Source: a virus
IMG/VR virus record: IMGVR_UViG_3300021091_000015
Strand: one strand, 5' to 3'
DNA length: 64,000 bases
Numbering within the stretch: the stretch's first letter is position 1; each line of letters begins with the position of its first letter. A program made the position numbers and the translations under genes. Positions 56,428 through 64,000 of the stretch are shown here, piece after piece. The notes under the pieces are model-generated. The model did no database searches, was not told the DNA's origin, and saw only the letters and a list, made by a program, of their open reading frames with translations.

Positions 56428-56524
56428 AATGTCGTATTAATGTTGTAATTTATTGTAATGGTACAAAGATATATAAACTTTTTGTAAAAACAAAGTTTTT
56501 TTTAAAAAAAATTAAAAAAAATTT

Positions 56525-56986
56525 TTAAATCCTCACCAAATGATTCGCGCTGTAGGTCATCATAGCCCCCGCGTGTTTGTATCTCACTTTATACCCCATA
56601 CCCTCAACCAAACCAACGGCTTGTCTTAAAACCTTATTTGATTTGTATTTTGGGTCAGGATTAAGGTCAATATCAATCCAAGTGACTTTTGGTAAACCAT
56701 TGTTTCTCAAGTGTTCAGCAACTTCAACCGCCTTCCACACTTCAGTCATTAGTCTACTTGACGTATCTTTTTCAAATGGTATTGTGTCTTTAGTACACAA
56801 TACGTGAGCACCCTTACCTTTTGTGTAAAGAGCAATAACCACCCCGTAAACTGTTTTAGAATTACTAAATGATTGTGAATCCGAACCAATCAATATTTCA
56901 ATATCGTTTTTATCCACCAAATAATCTTTGATGTAACCTATAACGTCGGTTATGAGTGTTCCGTGCAATGTTCTAAATTTTTTCAT
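56525..56986 (-). CDS. RNase H-like YkuK (DUF458) family protein
   Basis: IGSDSQ, RL..E...AVE.A, IDIDLNP....SN. Confidence 0.75.
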   Translation of the reverse strand: MKKFRTLHGTLITDVIGYIKDYLVDKNDIEILIGSDSQSFSNSKTVYGVVIALYTKGKGAHVLCTKDTIPFEKDTSSRLMTEVWKAVEVAEHLRNNGLPKVTWIDIDLNPDPKYKSNKVLRQAVGLVEGMGYKVRYKHAGAMMTYSANHLVRI

Positions 56987-57013
56987 ACCATTTTATAATA
57001 TATAAGTACTCCG

Positions 57014-57051
57014 CGGAAGGTGAGGGGCTCGAACCCTTGCGACTGTAACAC
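57014..57051 (-). pseudogene. 3' fragment of a tRNA (Ser-like acceptor)
   Basis: AAGGG-TTCGAGC-CCCT T-arm followed by CACCTTCC-G; no 5' half found. Confidence 0.55.
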
Positions 57052-57231
57052 CTTGTTATGTGTAGTAATTTTGTGGGGTTGATGTGGGTTGGTGAAAATT
57101 ATTACACATAACTACCAAGTAGTCTTTAATATAACCGATAATGTCGGTTATACGATATTCGCTTAAAAGGTAGACCCGGGCCCAACAAGCCGTTTTCGTA
57201 CGCAACGGAAGGGCCCTTTTTAAGGTCTACT

Positions 57232-57306
57232 TGGAGCGGGAAATGGGATTTGAACCCACGGCCCTCGCCTTGGCAAGGCGATGCTCTACCACTGAGCTAC
57301 TCCCGC
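57232..57306 (-). tRNA. tRNA-Gly(GCC), CCA encoded
   Basis: GCGGGAGTAGCTCAGTGGTAGAGC...CTTGCCAAG...GTTCAAATC...CCCGCTCCA. Confidence 0.95.
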
Positions 57307-57375
57307 TTGGAGTGGTCTTCCCATAACGATTTCCTTAATAGGTTTTGGAGTTAAGGGTACGACCACATGTTGATA

Positions 57376-57828
57376 TTATTTTTGATTTTTTTGTTGCCAC
57401 TCATAGGACACCGTATCTTCGGTAATTGGACCACCTTTTGCCCATGTTTTACATGTTCTTGCGGAGTGACATTTAAAGTGATGCATCCAACAGTACCCTA
57501 ATCTACCACTATCATCAGAAACCGAACCTGGCATACACTCATCCATTCTTGGTGATATATCAAATGCTACACAATTACCACATAGTGATTTTTTAGCAGC
57601 TTCAACAGTGGTGTTCCAATCAGATGCAACCATTTCCCAATAATCACCGGGTTCGTCAATATTAAGTGGACCATATTTTATATAATCCGCTTTTATTGAC
57701 TTGTCTCTATTATTGGTATTTAACTCTAAATCTTGAGTTGCTTTAGGACATTCCATTTCCGCTTCGGATAGGAGTCTTTTGTTTAATCTTTCGATAAGTT
57801 GTTTTTTCTTTTTTAATTCAATTCCCAT
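57376..57828 (-). CDS. Cys/His-rich late protein with LLSE leader
   Basis: CGNC, CWMHHFKCHSARTC; ATATTTAT at 57843 (minus). Confidence 0.65.
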   Translation of the reverse strand: MGIELKKKKQLIERLNKRLLSEAEMECPKATQDLELNTNNRDKSIKADYIKYGPLNIDEPGDYWEMVASDWNTTVEAAKKSLCGNCVAFDISPRMDECMPGSVSDDSGRLGYCWMHHFKCHSARTCKTWAKGGPITEDTVSYEWQQKNQK

Positions 57829-57854
57829 GATTTTTTTATTATATAAATATCTCG

Positions 57855-57928
57855 TGGTCCCTCACGGGCTTGAACCGTGGACCTACCGATTATGAGTCGG
57901 GTGCTCTGACCAACTGAGCTAAGGGACC
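57855..57928 (-). tRNA. tRNA-CAT, most like Ile2 (lysidine-modified, reads AUA)
   Basis: GGTCCCTTAGCTCAG...CCGACTCATAATCGG; lacks initiator features. Confidence 0.85.
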
Positions 57929-58079
57929 GTATCGTCGAAATAACCGATAAAATGAATTATCGTTTAAATCGGCGATATTAGTTTTTTACTTTGAATTTCA
58001 TCTGTGTGATAACAGCATTTGCCACCTTTTTATGTCCCGAGGGATTCATATGACATGTCCAATTACCACAATCTGTACG

Positions 58080-58258
58080 AACAAAAGTTCAATCGTTCAT
58101 ATGTCATTTTTGATTTTCACCATTTAAATCCTTCTGAAAAAGATGTTGATTGGTCAAAACTCAGATTGAAGTCTGATGAATCAATCAAAAATGAACTTAA
58201 TAAATGTGTTCTTTTATGTTCAAATTGTCATAGAAAGAGACATCATTTAAATTCGTAG
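58080..58258 (+). pseudogene. Truncated HNH endonuclease remnant
   Basis: FDFHHLNP...CVLLCSNCHRKRH C-terminal HNH with no credible N-terminus; antisense within the tRNA cluster. Confidence 0.6.
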
Positions 58259-58327
58259 GCCCACCAAGATTCGAACTTGGAATATCTCATTAGAAGTGAG
58301 AGGGTATATCCCTTTACCTATGGGCCC
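58256..58327 (-). tRNA. tRNA-Arg(TCT)
   Basis: GGGCCCA acceptor; TCTCA-CTTCTAA-TGAGA; GTTCGAATC. Confidence 0.9.
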
Positions 58328-58391
58328 ATTAAAATGGAAATTTCCTTCTACGATAACCGTAGTTGTAGATTTGAGGAGTTTTCCATTTTTG

Positions 58392-58477
58392 TACCGCTGG
58401 CCGGAATCGAACCGGCACGGACATTACTGTCCAAGAAATTTTAAGTCTCTCTTGTCTACCTGTTTCAACACAGCGGC
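58392..58477 (-). tRNA. tRNA-Leu(TAA)
   Basis: GCCGCTG acceptor; CTTAAAA loop; long variable arm GGACAG/TGTCC; GTTCGATTC. Confidence 0.9.
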
Positions 58478-58558
58478 ATCAATTTCACCAACATGTCAAA
58501 GAACAAATTCAGTTCAATCTGAACTATTGTACAATTATACAAAAAAAAGACTTAAAAT

Positions 58559-58593
58559 AAAAAACCCGAACTTCAAAAATAAAAGTTCGGGTT
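58559..58593 (-). terminator. Terminator of the putative attenuator
   Basis: AACCCGAACTTT...GAAGTTCGGGTT-TTTATTTT. Confidence 0.8.
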
Positions 58594-58623
58594 CAATTAG
58601 TTAGAGTTTACTCTCAGTATAAC

Positions 58624-58725
58624 TTACAACTTAAAATCCGAACTTGGGTTACTTAAATACAAACCTCTCCCATTACCACTTAGCGGGTTGTTTGACGTTT
58701 GTTGTATGTGTACCAAGTTCATCAT
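58624..58725 (-). CDS. Putative 33-aa leader peptide MMNLVHIQQTSNNPLSGNGRGLYLSNPSSDFKL
   Basis: Short ORF carrying alternative pairing segments, upstream of the terminator and tRNAs; ATACTTAT promoter variant upstream. Confidence 0.5.
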   Translation of the reverse strand: MMNLVHIQQTSNNPLSGNGRGLYLSNPSSDFKL

Positions 58726-58762
58726 TGTTTAATAAGTATATACAAATATACAAAAAGTTTTT

Positions 58763-59005
58763 TTAAAATAAATCATCACACCATATTGGTGTCTTCTCTC
58801 CCATGTATGAACCTGACACGTTAAAATCAAAATATTCAACCGCTTCAGTCATGTCCATACCTTGGTCCATGAGAATCTTTAAACACTTTTCAACCGAGTA
58901 AATCAATCTCATAGAGTTTTCATCAATTCCTAATACCGCGGAATCAAATCCATCCGCTATTAAAATTTCCTCATCTGCATATTGTTCTAAAATTTTTTCT
59001 AACAT
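58763..59005 (-). CDS. Conserved phage hypothetical protein
   Basis: ADGFDSAVLG...EAVEYFDFN..G.Y.GEKTP. Confidence 0.65.
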   Translation of the reverse strand: MLEKILEQYADEEILIADGFDSAVLGIDENSMRLIYSVEKCLKILMDQGMDMTEAVEYFDFNVSGSYMGEKTPIWCDDLF

Positions 59006-59060
59006 ATTGTCTTTTTTAGTTGTATCCCTATAGGAAATCGAACCACTCTTTCATCTGTGT

Positions 59061-59146
59061 CGGAGAGAGTAAAATTTGAACCTACGATACTTTGTAGTAC
59101 ACCTAATTTCAAGTCAGATGTAATCGACCAACTTCGCTTCTTATTC
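59061..59146 (-). pseudogene. Degenerate tRNA-Ser(TGA)
   Basis: TCTGA-CTTGAAA-TTAGG anticodon arm, variable arm, GGTTCAAAT and CTCTCCG end; stems mismatched. Confidence 0.6.
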
Positions 59147-59281
59147 ATCTGTTAACTTTTATTATAAATTATAACAAGTAAATTTCATATTTCAAAATGT
59201 TTAAAAAAATATATATAACAATCTTCATTGCCGAGGTATTTATAGTAAACCAAATAAATAAAACTAAACTAAATTACAACT

Positions 59282-59536
59282 ATGAACTTTAAAAAATGGA
59301 TTATTGACCTATTCAAAGATGAAAGAGGGTCAACTTCAATCAAACCGGTAATTGCTCTATTAGGCGCATTATTCCTTTGTGGTACCATGGCTGTAAATTC
59401 TTTTTCTCATGGTGACATTAAACCATCTGAAGAATTAGTAAACGCAGTTATGGTTATTACTGCAATTGGAATGGGTGCAGATACTGTAGACAAGTTCTCA
59501 CATAAAAAGAAATCAGACGACTCAGTATCTGAGTAA
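59282..59536 (+). CDS. Putative 2-TM holin
   Basis: Two TM segments, charged C-terminus; GTATTTAT upstream. Confidence 0.5.
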   Translation: MNFKKWIIDLFKDERGSTSIKPVIALLGALFLCGTMAVNSFSHGDIKPSEELVNAVMVITAIGMGADTVDKFSHKKKSDDSVSE

Positions 59537-59590
59537 GTGATTACGGAGTGATATAACCCGTTTAGGTGATATCAATCAATCATCATCTTA

Positions 59591-59935
59591 TTATTGAATC
59601 TGAAGTATTTTATTGTACGTATCGGTTATTTCAGCACAAGTTTCATAATCTTCGTTACCTTCAAAGAATGGTAGAATATCCCTTACTAAAACAATTGATT
59701 CTTTTCTTTTAAATTTTAACTCAGTTTCCCATTGTAAACCATTTATCTTAGCGCCTAACACTAAAATTACATTGTTTTTATCTTTTCTTTTAAGACTTTT
59801 AAAGAGGTTGACTAACGTCAGATAAATTAGTTCTTTGTTAACATTGTAAAAATCACCAAAGCTATTATAGTCCTGTTGGAGTATTAACTTTTTGATTACG
59901 GTATCGTTTGGTTTTTTAGGTAGTTTTGGTGGCAT
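59591..59935 (-). CDS. Hypothetical protein with C-terminal UVR-like motif
   Basis: NEDYETCAEI. Confidence 0.55.
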   Translation of the reverse strand: MPPKLPKKPNDTVIKKLILQQDYNSFGDFYNVNKELIYLTLVNLFKSLKRKDKNNVILVLGAKINGLQWETELKFKRKESIVLVRDILPFFEGNEDYETCAEITDTYNKILQIQ

Positions 59936-60018
59936 GTCGATTTAATTTTTGGTTCATCACAAATTTGACCAAAAAAATCGACCTATACAAATAAATGAAT
60001 AAATTGTTTAAAAAAAGT

Positions 60019-60429
60019 TTAAACCGTATGGTCCCACTGAACTCTCACACAGTTTTGGGGTAATCTGTGGATATGTCTATAATTATTGATGTACCCCATC
60101 ATATTAGCACTCCCAACCGCGTTGGCTGAATGTACAACCACATCAACAACAGGTTTTCCATCCAACCACTGATTAACTAACCATTTGGTACAGTCCATAC
60201 CTGTTTTCTCGGTGATATTGTCGTAGTTGATTTCGTAGTTTTTAACTACACCGTGTAACCATTCTTTCATTGCGCTATCACCCAAGTCGTGGTCTAAAGA
60301 AATCAACTCAACATTATCTAAACCAATCTCGGTTATCTTTTGAACCAATTCATCATAGGAACGAACCACTACCCAATTTTATTTATCAACGGGGGTTCTT
60401 ACATCATCTAAGTAAATTTTATATTTCAT
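60019..60429 (-). pseudogene. Cyclic-phosphate-processing receiver-domain protein with in-frame TAA at 60379-60381
   Basis: MKYKIYLDDVRTPVDK*NWVVVRSY...ISLDHDLG...TGMD...HSAN..G. Confidence 0.7.
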
Positions 60430-61465
60430 CTTTTTTAAATGGTTTTGTATATGGTGGGTATAATATTTTCCATATTATACTTTTATATTCTTTACCGTCC
60501 AACATATTAAATAATATTGATGGGTGGTTATATCTTTTTGCTAATTCAGCAAACTCGCGTCGGTTACATTCTTTTTGATGTGCCTCAAAATAAGTGTTTC
60601 GTATTTTATTGAATATCCATTGATATTCCTTCTCAATATTTTCATAACGAACCACAAAATCTTTAACAGTTTCTTTCACCCAACTGTTAAACTCATCAGG
60701 TACTTTTTCAAGTAACTCATCAAATGATTTATCTTCTTTAAGGTATTCCCAAATATCTCTACTTGACACATTGGTTAAAATTTTATGTAATCGAACATAC
60801 TCCTCAAATTTAATTTTCATTCTAAAATTTGATGGGTAAAATCTTACAACAAAACCTTCACTGTTTGATGTATTAAGTTTCTTATATGTGTCAAATGTTT
60901 CTTTATTGAAAGTTACCATTGTGCTTCCAACAACGTCTTCTTCCAAAATACCTGATGAATTAAAAATTGCACATGCGGTGTACCAGTTCAATTCACCTTC
61001 AGGGGTTGTTACAGAAAGGAATGTGATTTTTTCACAATTATAATTTACAACAATTCTATTCTCAGGATAAATAATTTCACATAGGTATGTAACCTCTTTT
61101 ACAAAATTATTTAAATTGTATTTTGATTTTAAAATTTCAAAACCACGGATAGACTGTTCAGAAGTAAATGAACCTCTTGTTGACATAATCCATTCCCCAT
61201 CGTAAAAGAATAGAATACCAAGAGAACCATCCATTTTATCTTGAATGTGAACATATTCACTGTCCCATGGAATTAAGTCCTTATCAATAACTTCCTCATA
61301 GTTAAAGAACTTACCAAACGGTTCTGCAATTACATCGCCTTTTGAATTGGTAACGAGTCCACGACATTGCATAGTAATATCGTCCCACAAAGATTCGTAT
61401 TGTACTCTTGGGGTATAATTCCATATGCACAAATCTTTTGTGGGGTGAGTTTGTTTTATTAACAA
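60419..61465 (-). CDS. RNA ligase, T4 Rnl1-like (true start may be near 61501)
   Basis: CRGL, KFFN, KMDGSLG (motif I), EII, EGFVV, RMKIK. Confidence 0.85.
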   Translation of the reverse strand: MLIKQTHPTKDLCIWNYTPRVQYESLWDDITMQCRGLVTNSKGDVIAEPFGKFFNYEEVIDKDLIPWDSEYVHIQDKMDGSLGILFFYDGEWIMSTRGSFTSEQSIRGFEILKSKYNLNNFVKEVTYLCEIIYPENRIVVNYNCEKITFLSVTTPEGELNWYTACAIFNSSGILEEDVVGSTMVTFNKETFDTYKKLNTSNSEGFVVRFYPSNFRMKIKFEEYVRLHKILTNVSSRDIWEYLKEDKSFDELLEKVPDEFNSWVKETVKDFVVRYENIEKEYQWIFNKIRNTYFEAHQKECNRREFAELAKRYNHPSILFNMLDGKEYKSIIWKILYPPYTKPFKKDEI

Positions 61466-62102: not shown

Positions 62103-64000
62103 TTACACCCTTTTTTTAAAAATTTTTATTTCACCGTCTTTAAATTTTAAATTAATGGAATCATTCTCCTTAATTTCGCCTTTTAAGATTGAATCACTTA
62201 AATAATCTTCACACATATTTTGGATGATTCTTTTAACTGGTCTTGCACCAAAATCTTCTTGAATATTAAGTTCCGATATTCTCTCCACAATTGTCTTATC
62301 AAAAGAAACTTTATAATTTTTTTCTTTTAATCTAACAGACAACTTATTTAATTCAATTTCAATAATCTTTTTAATTACATCTTTATCTAACGAATTAAAA
62401 CTGATTATGTCGTCTACTCGATTCAAAAACTCAGGGTTAAAGTGTTGTTTTAATGATTTTTGAACGATTGATTTTTTAACCTCAAAGTTTTGTGATTCTG
62501 AAGATGATGAACTAAAACCAACACCCTTACCAAATTCAGATACTTTTTTTGCACCAATATTGGATGTCATGATTACTATAGTGTTTGTAAAGTTTACTTT
62601 TCTTCCAAACGAATCGGTTAAATGTCCTTCATCCAAAATTTGAAGTAAGATATTGAAAACGTCTTTGTGTGCTTTTTCAACCTCATCGAACAATACCACA
62701 GAAAATGGATTATTTTTAATCTTCTCAGTAAGTTGGCCTCCTTCATCATAACCAACATAACCTGGAGGTGAACCAATTAATTTTGCCACGTTGTGTTTTT
62801 CCATGTATTCACTCATATCAACACGAATTACTTTTTCGGAGTCTCCGAAAAGTAGTTCAGCAATCGATTTTGCGAGATATGTTTTACCAACACCAGTTGA
62901 ACCTAAAAATATAAAAGAACCTATTGGTTTATTTGTATCTTTAATACCAACCCTATTTCTTCTAATTGATTTGGAAATTATTGAAATAGCCTCGTCTTGA
63001 CCAATTACTTTAGATTTTAATTTTTCTTCTAAGTTCAAAAGATTTGCGGTCTCTGTATCATCAATCTTAGAGAGAGGTACACCTGTAATTTGTGAAATCA
63101 TTTCATATACATCTGCAACCGTTACGGGTGTTTTATTGTCTTTTTGTTTGTCTAACCACTTCTTTTTTTCATCATTTAATTTACTCAGTAATTTTCTTTC
63201 TTCATCTCTTAATTTAGCCGCTTGTTCATAGTTTTGACTTTTTACAACTTCTATCTTCCTATTTTTTAAATCATCAGATTCCTTTTTTAGTTTTTCAATA
63301 ATCTCAGGAATTTTGGTATTTATTTTTTTTTCTGAACCCAATTCATCCATCACGTCAATTGCTTTATCGGGAAACTGACGGTCTGTGATAAATCTTGATG
63401 ACAAATTCACGATAGTTTCAAAAACCTCCGGTTCATAAAATACTTTGTGAAAATTTTGATATGAATCTTTTAAATTTTTTAAAATTTGAACTGTTTCTTC
63501 CTTACTTGGTTCTTTCAAAATTATTTTTTGAAATCTTCTAACTAATGCACCATCTTTCTCGATGTGTTTTTTAAATTCATCAAATGTTGTCGCCCCAATA
63601 CATTGAATTTCTCCTCGAGCTAATGCGGGTTTCATAATATTAGCGGCGTCCATTGACCCGCTAGCGTTGCCAGCACCAACCATTGTGTGTATTTCATCAA
63701 TAAACACAATTACATTAGGTTCATTCTGTATTTCGTTTAGAACTGCTTTAATACGTTCTTCAAACTGACCTCTGTATTTTGTACCAGCCACCAAAGATGT
63801 TAAATCTAATGATACAACTCGTTTGTCTAAAAGATTTGATGGACAATCTCCTTTTACAATCATCTGAGCGAGTTTCTCAACTAAAGCCGATTTACCCACA
63901 CCCGCGTCACCAATTATCACTACGTTGTTTTTCTTTTTTCTAGATAATATCTGTGCAATTCTTTTAACCTCACCATCTCTCCCAATTATTGGGTCAATTT
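62103..64000 (-). CDS. clpC: ClpC-type AAA+ unfoldase, 5'-truncated by the window edge
   Basis: DPIIGR, GDAGVGKS, GTKYRGQFEER, UVR segment QNYEQAAKLRD, GSTGVGKT, GARP; frame is open to the window end. Confidence 0.92.
   Translation of the reverse strand, partial: IDPIIGRDGEVKRIAQILSRKKKNNVVIIGDAGVGKSALVEKLAQMIVKGDCPSNLLDKRVVSLDLTSLVAGTKYRGQFEERIKAVLNEIQNEPNVIVFIDEIHTMVGAGNASGSMDAANIMKPALARGEIQCIGATTFDEFKKHIEKDGALVRRFQKIILKEPSKEETVQILKNLKDSYQNFHKVFYEPEVFETIVNLSSRFITDRQFPDKAIDVMDELGSEKKINTKIPEIIEKLKKESDDLKNRKIEVVKSQNYEQAAKLRDEERKLLSKLNDEKKKWLDKQKDNKTPVTVADVYEMISQITGVPLSKIDDTETANLLNLEEKLKSKVIGQDEAISIISKSIRRNRVGIKDTNKPIGSFIFLGSTGVGKTYLAKSIAELLFGDSEKVIRVDMSEYMEKHNVAKLIGSPPGYVGYDEGGQLTEKIKNNPFSVVLFDEVEKAHKDVFNILLQILDEGHLTDSFGRKVNFTNTIVIMTSNIGAKKVSEFGKGVGFSSSSSESQNFEVKKSIVQKSLKQHFNPEFLNRVDDIISFNSLDKDVIKKIIEIELNKLSVRLKEKNYKVSFDKTIVERISELNIQEDFGARPVKRIIQNMCEDYLSDSILKGEIKENDSINLKFKDGEIKIFKKRV

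Follow-up and report, generated by a model that had tools for sequence, protein, structure and literature searches.

Ahead of the transfer RNA (tRNA) genes of a Bacteroidota phage, virus record IMGVR_UViG_3300021091_000015, lies a compact unit made up of a promoter, a 33-codon open reading frame (ORF) and a terminator. The record was analyzed as a single stretch of 64,000 nt (the window), and the elements of the unit are read on its minus strand. The unit is probably a ribosome-mediated leader-peptide transcription attenuator, that is, a translation-sensing switch that would gate read-through into a phage tRNA array led by a boxA. Its parts and their alternative pairings are apparent from the sequence. 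Comparison with other phages adds the recurrence of the design in unrelated units, a match of leader codons to the tRNAs behind the terminator that is specific to the reading frame, and sister units with no internal promoter. Folding models suggest that the position of the ribosome would pick between two helices, an antiterminator (2:3) and the terminator (3:4), with slow decoding of cognate codons as the signal. As the biological trigger we infer a loss of tRNAs, by anticodon nucleases or by other depletion.

Layout of the leader unit

The unit and the array behind it consist of the following elements, segments 1 to 4 being the stretches that can pair with one another.

59005-58763 (-): 80-aa gene (phrog_13182), the first item upstream of the leader unit
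58750-58743 (-): P1, a Bacteroidota sigma-A -7 box, TATATTTG, assigned by sequence and the TAnnTTTG consensus
58725-58624 (-): leader ORF, 33 codons plus stop, peptide MMNLVHIQQTSNNPLSGNGRGLYLSNPSSDFKL, from the ORF listing
58720-58713 (-): segment 1, GAACTTGG (9-nt form UGAACUUGG, 58721-58713), leader codons 2-5
58647-58638 (-): segment 2, CCAAGTTCGG / CCAAGUUCGG, leader codons 27-30
58637-58595 (-): variable spacer, predicted loop of the 2:3 antiterminator; takes in the end of the leader with its stop codon, and a weak hairpin
58594-58552 (-): intrinsic terminator, comprising segment 3, loop, segment 4 and U tract
58590-58583 (-): segment 3 core, CCGAACTT; full terminator arm 58592-58583
58573-58566 (-): segment 4, AAGTTCGG; arm to 58565, with the T tract next
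58539-58532 (-): P2, a second -7-like box, TATAATTG, between terminator and boxA
58525-58511 (-): small hairpin, AGTTCAGATTGAACT, an insertion after P2 and before boxA that is confined to the window's clade (window, L119-L123, L125 and L126 in the alignment)
58504-58488 (-): boxA motif, GTTCTTTGACATGTTGG, an exact match, 10 nt upstream of tRNA-Leu
58477-58391 (-): tRNA-Leu(taa), first gene of the putatively gated array
58327-58255 (-): tRNA-Arg(tct), second tRNA of the array
57928-57854 (-): tRNA with anticodon CAT, Met or lysidine-type Ile2, third tRNA of the array
57306-57232 (-): tRNA-Gly(gcc), final tRNA of the array

The ORF, the four segments, the terminator, the boxA and the four tRNAs had been proposed in a preliminary description of this DNA; all of them were found on the minus strand, the segments at the same coordinates. 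The CAT tRNA is the orthologue of the CAT tRNA that follows tRNA-Ile(tat) in relatives of the window (identity 74/75 in L005 and 71/75 in L001). When positions 56500-60000 were compared with Rfam (E <= 1), the leader had no match and no riboswitch or leader family appeared; the matches were the four tRNAs and two weak opposite-strand hits to Plastid-ycf2 over two of them. INPHARED holds no near-identical phage record for the window.

The P1 region (58741-58772) and the P2 region (58530-58561) are 78% identical over 32 nt; a second likeness, of 79% identity over 24 nt, relates segment 2 and its 3' flank to segment 4 and the U tract. The leader unit looks partly built through local duplication.

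Alternative pairings and predicted folds

An 8-nt copy of segment 4, segment 2 has two possible partners, segment 1 and segment 3, and its end is 11 nt short of the stop codon. Its place at the end of the ORF (codons 27-30) agrees with the preliminary description, as do the three pairings given there: 1:2 forms 9 bp, 2:3 forms 8 bp, and 3:4 is the terminator. The terminator stem (58594-58562) has 13 pairs, five of them G-C, and is followed by TTTATTTTAA; it is the only strong intrinsic terminator called in the interval 56.5-60.5 kb.

A complement of at least 8 nt to the 5' arm of the terminator was found upstream in 97 of 20,000 dinucleotide shuffles (~0.005), and one of at least 8 nt to segment 2 still further upstream in 59 of 20,000 (~0.003), giving a joint expectation of ~1.4e-5 for both. 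A scan of very many windows would find such pairings by chance, which is why conservation matters.

The 196-nt RNA has a minimum free energy (MFE) of -52.3 kcal/mol (z = -4.6), in a fold that uses 1:2 and 3:4. For the window, 1:2 together with the terminator is predicted both when no ribosome is present and when a ribosome sits at the stop codon. The full transcript folds in the same way in 20 of the 21 family variants described below, L101 forming the terminator without 1:2. With a ribosome on codons 1-8 masking segment 1, and before segment 4 has been synthesized, the MFE fold contains 2:3 in 21/21 variants. Moving the ribosome to the stop codon abolishes 2:3 in the window and in most relatives; the helix persists in seven variants, six of which have the stop 14 nt past segment 2. 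The two competing structures are about equally stable, the 2:3 domain at -15.8 and the terminator at -15.7 kcal/mol in the window, with ranges of -10 to -17 and -11 to -16 kcal/mol, respectively, across the 21 variants.

The preliminary description had full translation leading to termination and stalling further upstream leading to 2:3, and within the family the folding simulations agree with this logic in outline. The unit therein resembles a classical attenuator in several respects: a short ORF near the transcription start and upstream of the tRNAs (33 codons, AUG about 13 nt from the start), an intrinsic terminator between that ORF and the tRNAs, a predicted antiterminator 2:3 that would exclude the terminator and could be masked by a finishing ribosome, and an anti-antiterminator 1:2 (9 bp in the MFE fold, three pairs with double changes).

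Conservation and covariation in the family

Relatives were collected from IMG/VR and metagenome loci by way of the neighboring gene, a conserved 17-mer and a profile of the peptide, yielding 21 distinct variants. In relatives the unit stands in the middle of an array of at least 20 tRNAs, with tRNA-Glu and one to three inserted genes on one side and tRNA-Leu(taa) on the other. For the neighboring 80-aa gene, the more distant relatives (L011-L080) lie outside tRNA clusters and supplied no further leaders.

Conservation of the ORF and of the pairings in related phages had been suggested as a check on the attenuator, and both are kept in the 21 variants. The frame is open from the same conserved start throughout, one in-frame 3-nt indel included, and every variant keeps 1:2 (6-9 bp), 2:3 (6-8 bp) and the terminator 3:4. 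Within segment 2, GUUCGGA is invariant. Sequence entropy climbs from ~0.3 to ~1.2 bits just past segment 2, ahead of the stop codon, and the last leader codons are about as variable as the spacer, in which weak hairpins are predicted in all variants.

The analysis of covariation also took in three distant homologues (L151, L245 and L233; MKNINNILTSTRPLNNGNGYGVQPLCYICSDINKG and similar). In this superfamily 1:2 and 3:4 are paired at 92.6%, and five pairs show compensatory double changes, three among the nine pairs of 1:2 and two in the terminator stem; the covariation score was reached by 0/500 shuffles. RNAalifold, run on the family alignment, chose 2:3 and two small helices with no covariation, in part owing to misalignment of the 3' arm of the terminator. 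Because the six core pairs of 2:3 never vary, the family alone would speak neither for nor against this helix, and the support for it comes from other families.

The same design in unrelated units

IMG/VR was searched with the motif that precedes tRNA-Leu, and the 300 nt upstream of it were inspected. The motif lies ~10 nt ahead of tRNAs in more than 100 phage contigs. Many of these have, within the 300 nt, a TAnnTTTG box, an ORF of 19-36 codons and a terminator, the peptides and terminators being unrelated to those of the window. In 18 representative unrelated units, the 3' end of the ORF carries the complement of the 5' arm of its own terminator. Compared with 300 shuffles, the duplex energies give p values of 0.003-0.09 per unit and a combined p of 1.6e-16 for the 18 units; as a control, five of six terminators without an upstream ORF gave p values of 0.47-0.97. 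The distance of the stop codon from the end of segment 2 ranges across units from -13 to +18 nt, with a median of 3.5. Homologous leaders covary in segments 2, 3 and 4: L184 has GGAGAUGG/CCAUCUCC where L179 has GAAGAUGG/CCAUCUUC, with a Glu-to-Lys change in the peptide, and L244 has AGUUCAG/CUGAACU where the window has AAGUUCGG/CCGAACUU.

Relatives of the window also carry a leader in front of their first tRNA array (leader 1; L001 458-547, and at the same place in L002-L005, L010, L013, L083 and L091). It has a TATCTTTG promoter and a 29-codon leader, MIRSTHTMSFTICSKWAEVADICMSRGVL, in which each of the 14 amino acids of the first array occurs. Pairing of the leader's 3' end with the terminator (AACCTCGGGA/TCTCGAGGTT) has E -21 vs a null of -9, and it shows covariation (TCCCGAGG/CCTCGGGA vs TCTCGAGG/CCTCGAGA). 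The U tract is followed after 5 nt by tRNA-Ala. In nine units 19 nt or fewer separate the U tract from the boxA. Since this leaves no room for a promoter, the arrays of these nine units, like the first array of the relatives, would be reachable only by read-through.

Leader codons and the tRNAs behind them

Fourteen units have usable downstream sequence, and 253 of their 408 leader codons (62%) are read by tRNAs behind the leader's own terminator. Permuted among units 20,000 times, the tRNA sets give counts of 181 +/- 12.5 and never more than 238 (p <5e-5). The match is 40% and 35% in the two other frames vs 62% in frame (p 2e-15), and this frame specificity argues that the leaders are translated.

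In L001, which has both leaders, leader 1 matches its own array at 25/28 codons and the other array at 18%; for leader 2, which is homologous to the ORF of the window, the figures are 23/33 and 21% (Fisher p 4e-6; counts 23:5 for leader 1 vs 6:23 for leader 2, alternative codon assignment). The split extends to synonymous codons. For Arg, CGC/CGA, which are rare in the phage (0.01 and 0.07), are used before Arg(acg) and AGA before Arg(tct); for Ile, ATC/ATT (with one ATA) are used before Ile(gat) and only ATA before Ile(tat). The preliminary description had pointed to codons in the leader that are cognate to the tRNAs downstream. With respect to the four tRNAs now in the window this point is weak (10/33 codons, background 0.18, p 0.06); with respect to the fuller ancestral array, which relatives retain, the match is significant (20/33 vs 0.37, p 0.005).

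An attenuator of this same design could instead respond to translation as a whole (availability of ribosomes, shut-off of the host, elongation rate or polymerase coupling), the codon match then reflecting shared history or codon bias. We consider this unlikely. It would suit the many kinds of codons in the leaders, one or two of each and no regulatory codons in tandem, as well as a general richness in rare codons (in the window's leader TCG 0.07, GGG 0.07, CCG 0.08 and CTA 0.09) and the fact that the window keeps its leader despite the loss of most cognate phage tRNAs. A general sensor would not, however, account for the way in which the two leaders of L001 share out the code, each following its own array even in the choice of Arg (CGN/AGA) and Ile (ATY/ATA) codons, or for the loss of the match when the tRNA sets are permuted among units.

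Promoters on both sides of the terminator

The preliminary description took ATACTTAT for the promoter. That sequence is instead the conserved start of the transcript, and the promoter is the -7 box TATATTTG at 58750-58743. The Bacteroidota -7 consensus is TAnnTTTG, with the G at -5 (PMC6847099, PMC9723704). Transcription from P1 is predicted to start at ~58738, giving a 5' untranslated region of 13 nt before the AUG. TAnnTTTG occupies the P1 column in 19/22 aligned family variants, with TATATCTG in L120/L121 and TTATCTTTG in L010, and TAnnTTTG-like boxes precede many unrelated leaders and other genes of the window as well. A sigma-70 scan returned 14 sites vs 16.8 expected, and is uninformative for such a host.

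A weak candidate promoter had also been noted downstream of the terminator, at 58531-58538, with the proviso that attenuation would fail if the tRNAs were driven only from there. The box (P2) exists and is conserved in the family, though its position is one base off (58539-58532), and to that extent half of the objection stands. P2 in the form TATAATTG carries one mismatch, at the near-invariant T-8, and this form is limited to the window's clade (window, L119-L121). The other family variants have a -7 box (TATATTTG/TATCTTTG/TAGATTTG) at the place of P2 or within 12 nt of it, most of them a perfect TAnnTTTG; the L001/L003 types have TATATTTT upstream and a perfect box 12 nt further. The transfer-messenger RNA (tmRNA) unit of the window has the same module, TATCTTTG plus boxA, in the same geometry as P2. 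Because P2 is conserved between terminator and tRNAs, the attenuator would be at most one of two inputs to the array in the window's family. Here the family departs from the classical attenuator, whose regulated genes have no promoter of their own past the terminator.

P2 also bears on the view that the leader is a small-protein gene in its own right, complete with promoter and terminator; the terminator would then only insulate a P2-driven tRNA operon from upstream transcription, and the pairings would have no regulatory role. We initially leaned to this view, given that P2 is conserved, and gave it up after the cross-family results; it is now quite unlikely. P1 and P2 do flank a self-contained unit, P2 with boxA is a stand-alone module used for tmRNA too, and the peptide has a conserved core, NNPLSGNGRGxYL, with synonymous and non-synonymous changes about equal in number (crude dN/dS ~0.3). 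But a small gene leaves unexplained why 18 unrelated short ORFs end in a copy of the 3' arm of their own terminator, why segments 2, 3 and 4 covary through non-synonymous changes, and why many sister units have no promoter past the terminator. The peptide, moreover, is without relatives beyond its own cluster: it belongs to no Pfam or PHROG family, a profile search of 1.84 billion cluster representatives returned that cluster alone plus low-complexity matches, and no copy was found in bacterial genomes.

The invariant core of the leader

Within the ORF, the 18-nt block AGTGGTAATGGGAGAGGT (58680-58663, minus strand; codons SGNGRG) is almost invariant in the 21 variants, six synonymous sites included. 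It holds GAGGU, which resembles a Shine-Dalgarno (SD) sequence; hosts of this type avoid SD sequences. L151, L245 and L233, the distant homologues, have kept the ORF and the switch but not the block.

Invariance at the nucleotide level in nearly all variants raises the thought that the ~180-nt transcript from P1 is a structured or dual-function small RNA, acting in trans via its purine-rich core, with the ORF secondary. Terminated attenuator RNAs can act in trans, rnTrpL being an example (PMC6614838), and the weak skew among codon positions and the fold z-score of -4.6 would fit as well. We nevertheless regard this reading as very improbable. The complement of AGTGGTAATGGGAGAGGT occurs in the window only on the opposite strand of the element itself, which speaks against seed pairing of the core with another site within the window. 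The transcript matches no Rfam family, the block is lost in three homologues that retain ORF and switch, and the frame-specific codon matching argues for translation.

Findings that weigh against attenuation

Returning to the leader-peptide attenuator, several findings weigh against it. Some concern the RNA. The 1:2 pairing is significant in only ~5 of the 21 representatives tested, and the four-segment form is not general. In the window's own family the six core pairs of 2:3 are invariant and show no covariation (233/500 shuffles). In the relatives that have their stop codon 14 nt after segment 2, a terminating ribosome would scarcely reach that segment. Others concern the leader as a reader of codons. 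It has no tandem run of regulatory codons, its match to the four tRNAs presently in the window is not significant, and its codon-position bias is weak (variable columns 11, 8 and 15 at positions 1, 2 and 3; p 0.34). The near-invariance of AGTGGTAATGGGAGAGGT at synonymous sites, with SGNGRG preserved in the peptide, goes beyond what a pure codon checklist needs. Finally, with P2 conserved between terminator and tRNAs, the tRNAs of the window's family need no read-through.

Proposed mechanism

The first two steps follow from sequence and comparison. Host RNA polymerase would start at P1 or arrive from upstream genes, and the 33-codon leader would be translated while it is being synthesized. The later steps draw on the folding models and on classical attenuator precedent. 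A ribosome that runs smoothly to the stop codon would cover segment 2, the terminator 3:4 would form, and transcription would end near 58555. If no ribosome is present, 1:2 would form, with the same termination. A ribosome slowed in the leader would hold off segment 1 and leave segment 2 free as segment 3 emerges; 2:3 would then form first and block the terminator, and the polymerase would proceed through boxA into the tRNA-Leu, Arg, CAT and Gly genes. As the leader is mostly in codons of the tRNAs of the ancestral array, slow decoding would report their shortage, and the loop would be homeostatic. P2 would give the array a basal input, to which the attenuator would add flow from P1 and the upstream genes.

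We lean, if only slightly, towards a wider picture. Large Bacteroidota phages would have a demand-driven supply of tRNAs, each block standing behind a checklist leader of its own codons, a switch and an rrn boxA. A shortage of any tRNA of the block would stall the ribosome and open the block, which would reclose on recovery. The window would be a decaying copy, whose sensor has outlived most of the genes under its control. Possible causes of shortage are codon-usage mismatch, host shut-off and anticodon nucleases.

The boxA motif

The boxA of the preliminary description proved to be that of the host rrn operons: the same 17-mer that stands 10 nt before tRNA-Leu here is found in the Pedobacter 16S-23S spacer. 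It occurs mostly in Bacteroidota genomes, and in Pedobacter hartonius its site within that spacer, with tRNA-Ala on one side and 23S rRNA on the other, is the classical one for a spacer boxA. The motif of the window accordingly has both marks of an rrn-type boxA, identity of sequence and a position in the 5' leader of a stable-RNA unit. By analogy with rrn, polymerases entering the array would become termination-resistant via boxA.

Close copies stand elsewhere in the window on the minus strand, one at 52570-52559 ahead of the tmRNA unit, directly after a TATCTTTG box, and one at 54342-54331 ahead of the small-RNA array that lies downstream of a 690-aa gene. The motif has the form GTTCTTTGAC(A/T)T, and is also present in L259 (2545-2561). 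From these placements, the host rrn boxA seems to serve the phage as a tag for its stable-RNA units.

Decay of the array and its neighborhood

The window has no homologue of leader 1; the whole first array and its leader, both kept by relatives, are lost. Four tRNAs remain of the second array, and the leader retains codons for Asn, Pro, Tyr and Gln, the phage tRNAs for which are gone.

Remnants that look like tRNAs lie at ~59150-59015 (minus strand), upstream of the 80-aa gene, and are called by neither ARAGORN nor Rfam. One combines CTTGAAA, resembling a Ser(UGA) anticodon loop, with GGTTCAAAT, resembling a T arm. Another is the 3' end of a tRNA-Glu and aligns with L001 2962-3008. Between tRNA-Arg and the CAT tRNA, a 79-aa HNH endonuclease ORF (58019-58258, plus strand; phrog_2255, E 2e-17) overlaps tRNA-Arg at its end, and may mark the site where the array broke up.

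The tRNA-Leu(taa) genes of two relatives (L010 3528-4460 and L126 ~660) are broken within the anticodon loop or directly behind it, and ARAGORN calls neither. The sequences at the interruptions are GACTTAAA|CAAATTTGAG... and GACTTA|GGTAATT.... An intron or an insertion may be responsible; a search of the L010 tRNA-Leu with Rfam gathering thresholds returned no group I intron.

Three further genes of the region, all on the minus strand, encode an RNase H-like protein (56525-56986; PF04308), a protein with a weak RNA-ligase match (60419-61465; PF09414, below the family cutoff) and a ClpB-like double-AAA ATPase (62103-63920). Judged by these matches, the tRNA region has a putative RNA-repair and chaperone neighborhood around its stable-RNA genes.

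Significance and comparison with known systems

The role of phage tRNAs is debated between compensation for codon usage and replacement of tRNAs destroyed by host defenses or host shut-off. If the mechanism proposed here is true, the expression of phage tRNAs would be a feedback-controlled response to decoding trouble, and would provide a direct experimental handle on this debate. Textbook leader-peptide attenuation, known from amino-acid and synthetase operons, would be extended to stable-RNA genes and to a checklist of many codons. The findings also suggest that the tRNA arrays of phages make use of the rrn boxA system of the host. In annotation, such ORFs of 19-36 codons and their switches currently escape gene callers and Rfam. 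Our literature searches on phage tRNA attenuators found no paper on leader-peptide attenuation of tRNA genes or phage tRNA arrays.

Like the trpL, hisL, leuL and pheL leaders, the unit has a promoter-proximal short ORF, an intrinsic terminator and mutually exclusive 1:2, 2:3 and 3:4 pairings, among which ribosome position is predicted to decide. Like the multivalent enterobacterial thr and ilvGMEDA/ilvBN leaders, it would read several kinds of codons. Unlike the leaders of amino-acid operons, it would gate tRNAs rather than enzymes, it has a many-codon checklist instead of a tandem run, it has no relation in sequence or in Rfam to Trp_leader, His_leader and the like, and it is followed by a second promoter past the terminator. 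The geometry differs also: in trpL the stop codon falls between segments 1 and 2, whereas here segments 1 and 2 occupy the very start and the end of the ORF, respectively, and the stop codon comes only after segment 2.

Attenuators of pheST and other aminoacyl-tRNA-synthetase genes and the T-box leaders of Firmicutes are likewise switches between termination and antitermination, which monitor the supply of charged tRNA and feed back on it. In T-boxes the leader itself binds uncharged tRNA, with no ribosome or ORF, and pheST has a run of Phe codons and controls a synthetase; to our knowledge, neither controls tRNA genes through a multi-codon leader. With rrn antitermination by boxA and Nus factors the window shares the same 17-nt motif, here placed in a phage and downstream of the putative attenuator terminator.

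The closest precedent in the host phylum is Flavobacterium, in which the F. psychrophilum transcriptome revealed leader-peptide attenuation before bacterial amino-acid biosynthesis operons (PMC9723704). These attenuators share with the phage unit the TAnnTTTG promoters and translation without SD sequences, and differ in gating amino-acid operons, not phage tRNA arrays. Their operation in F. psychrophilum means that the mechanism is available in such hosts.

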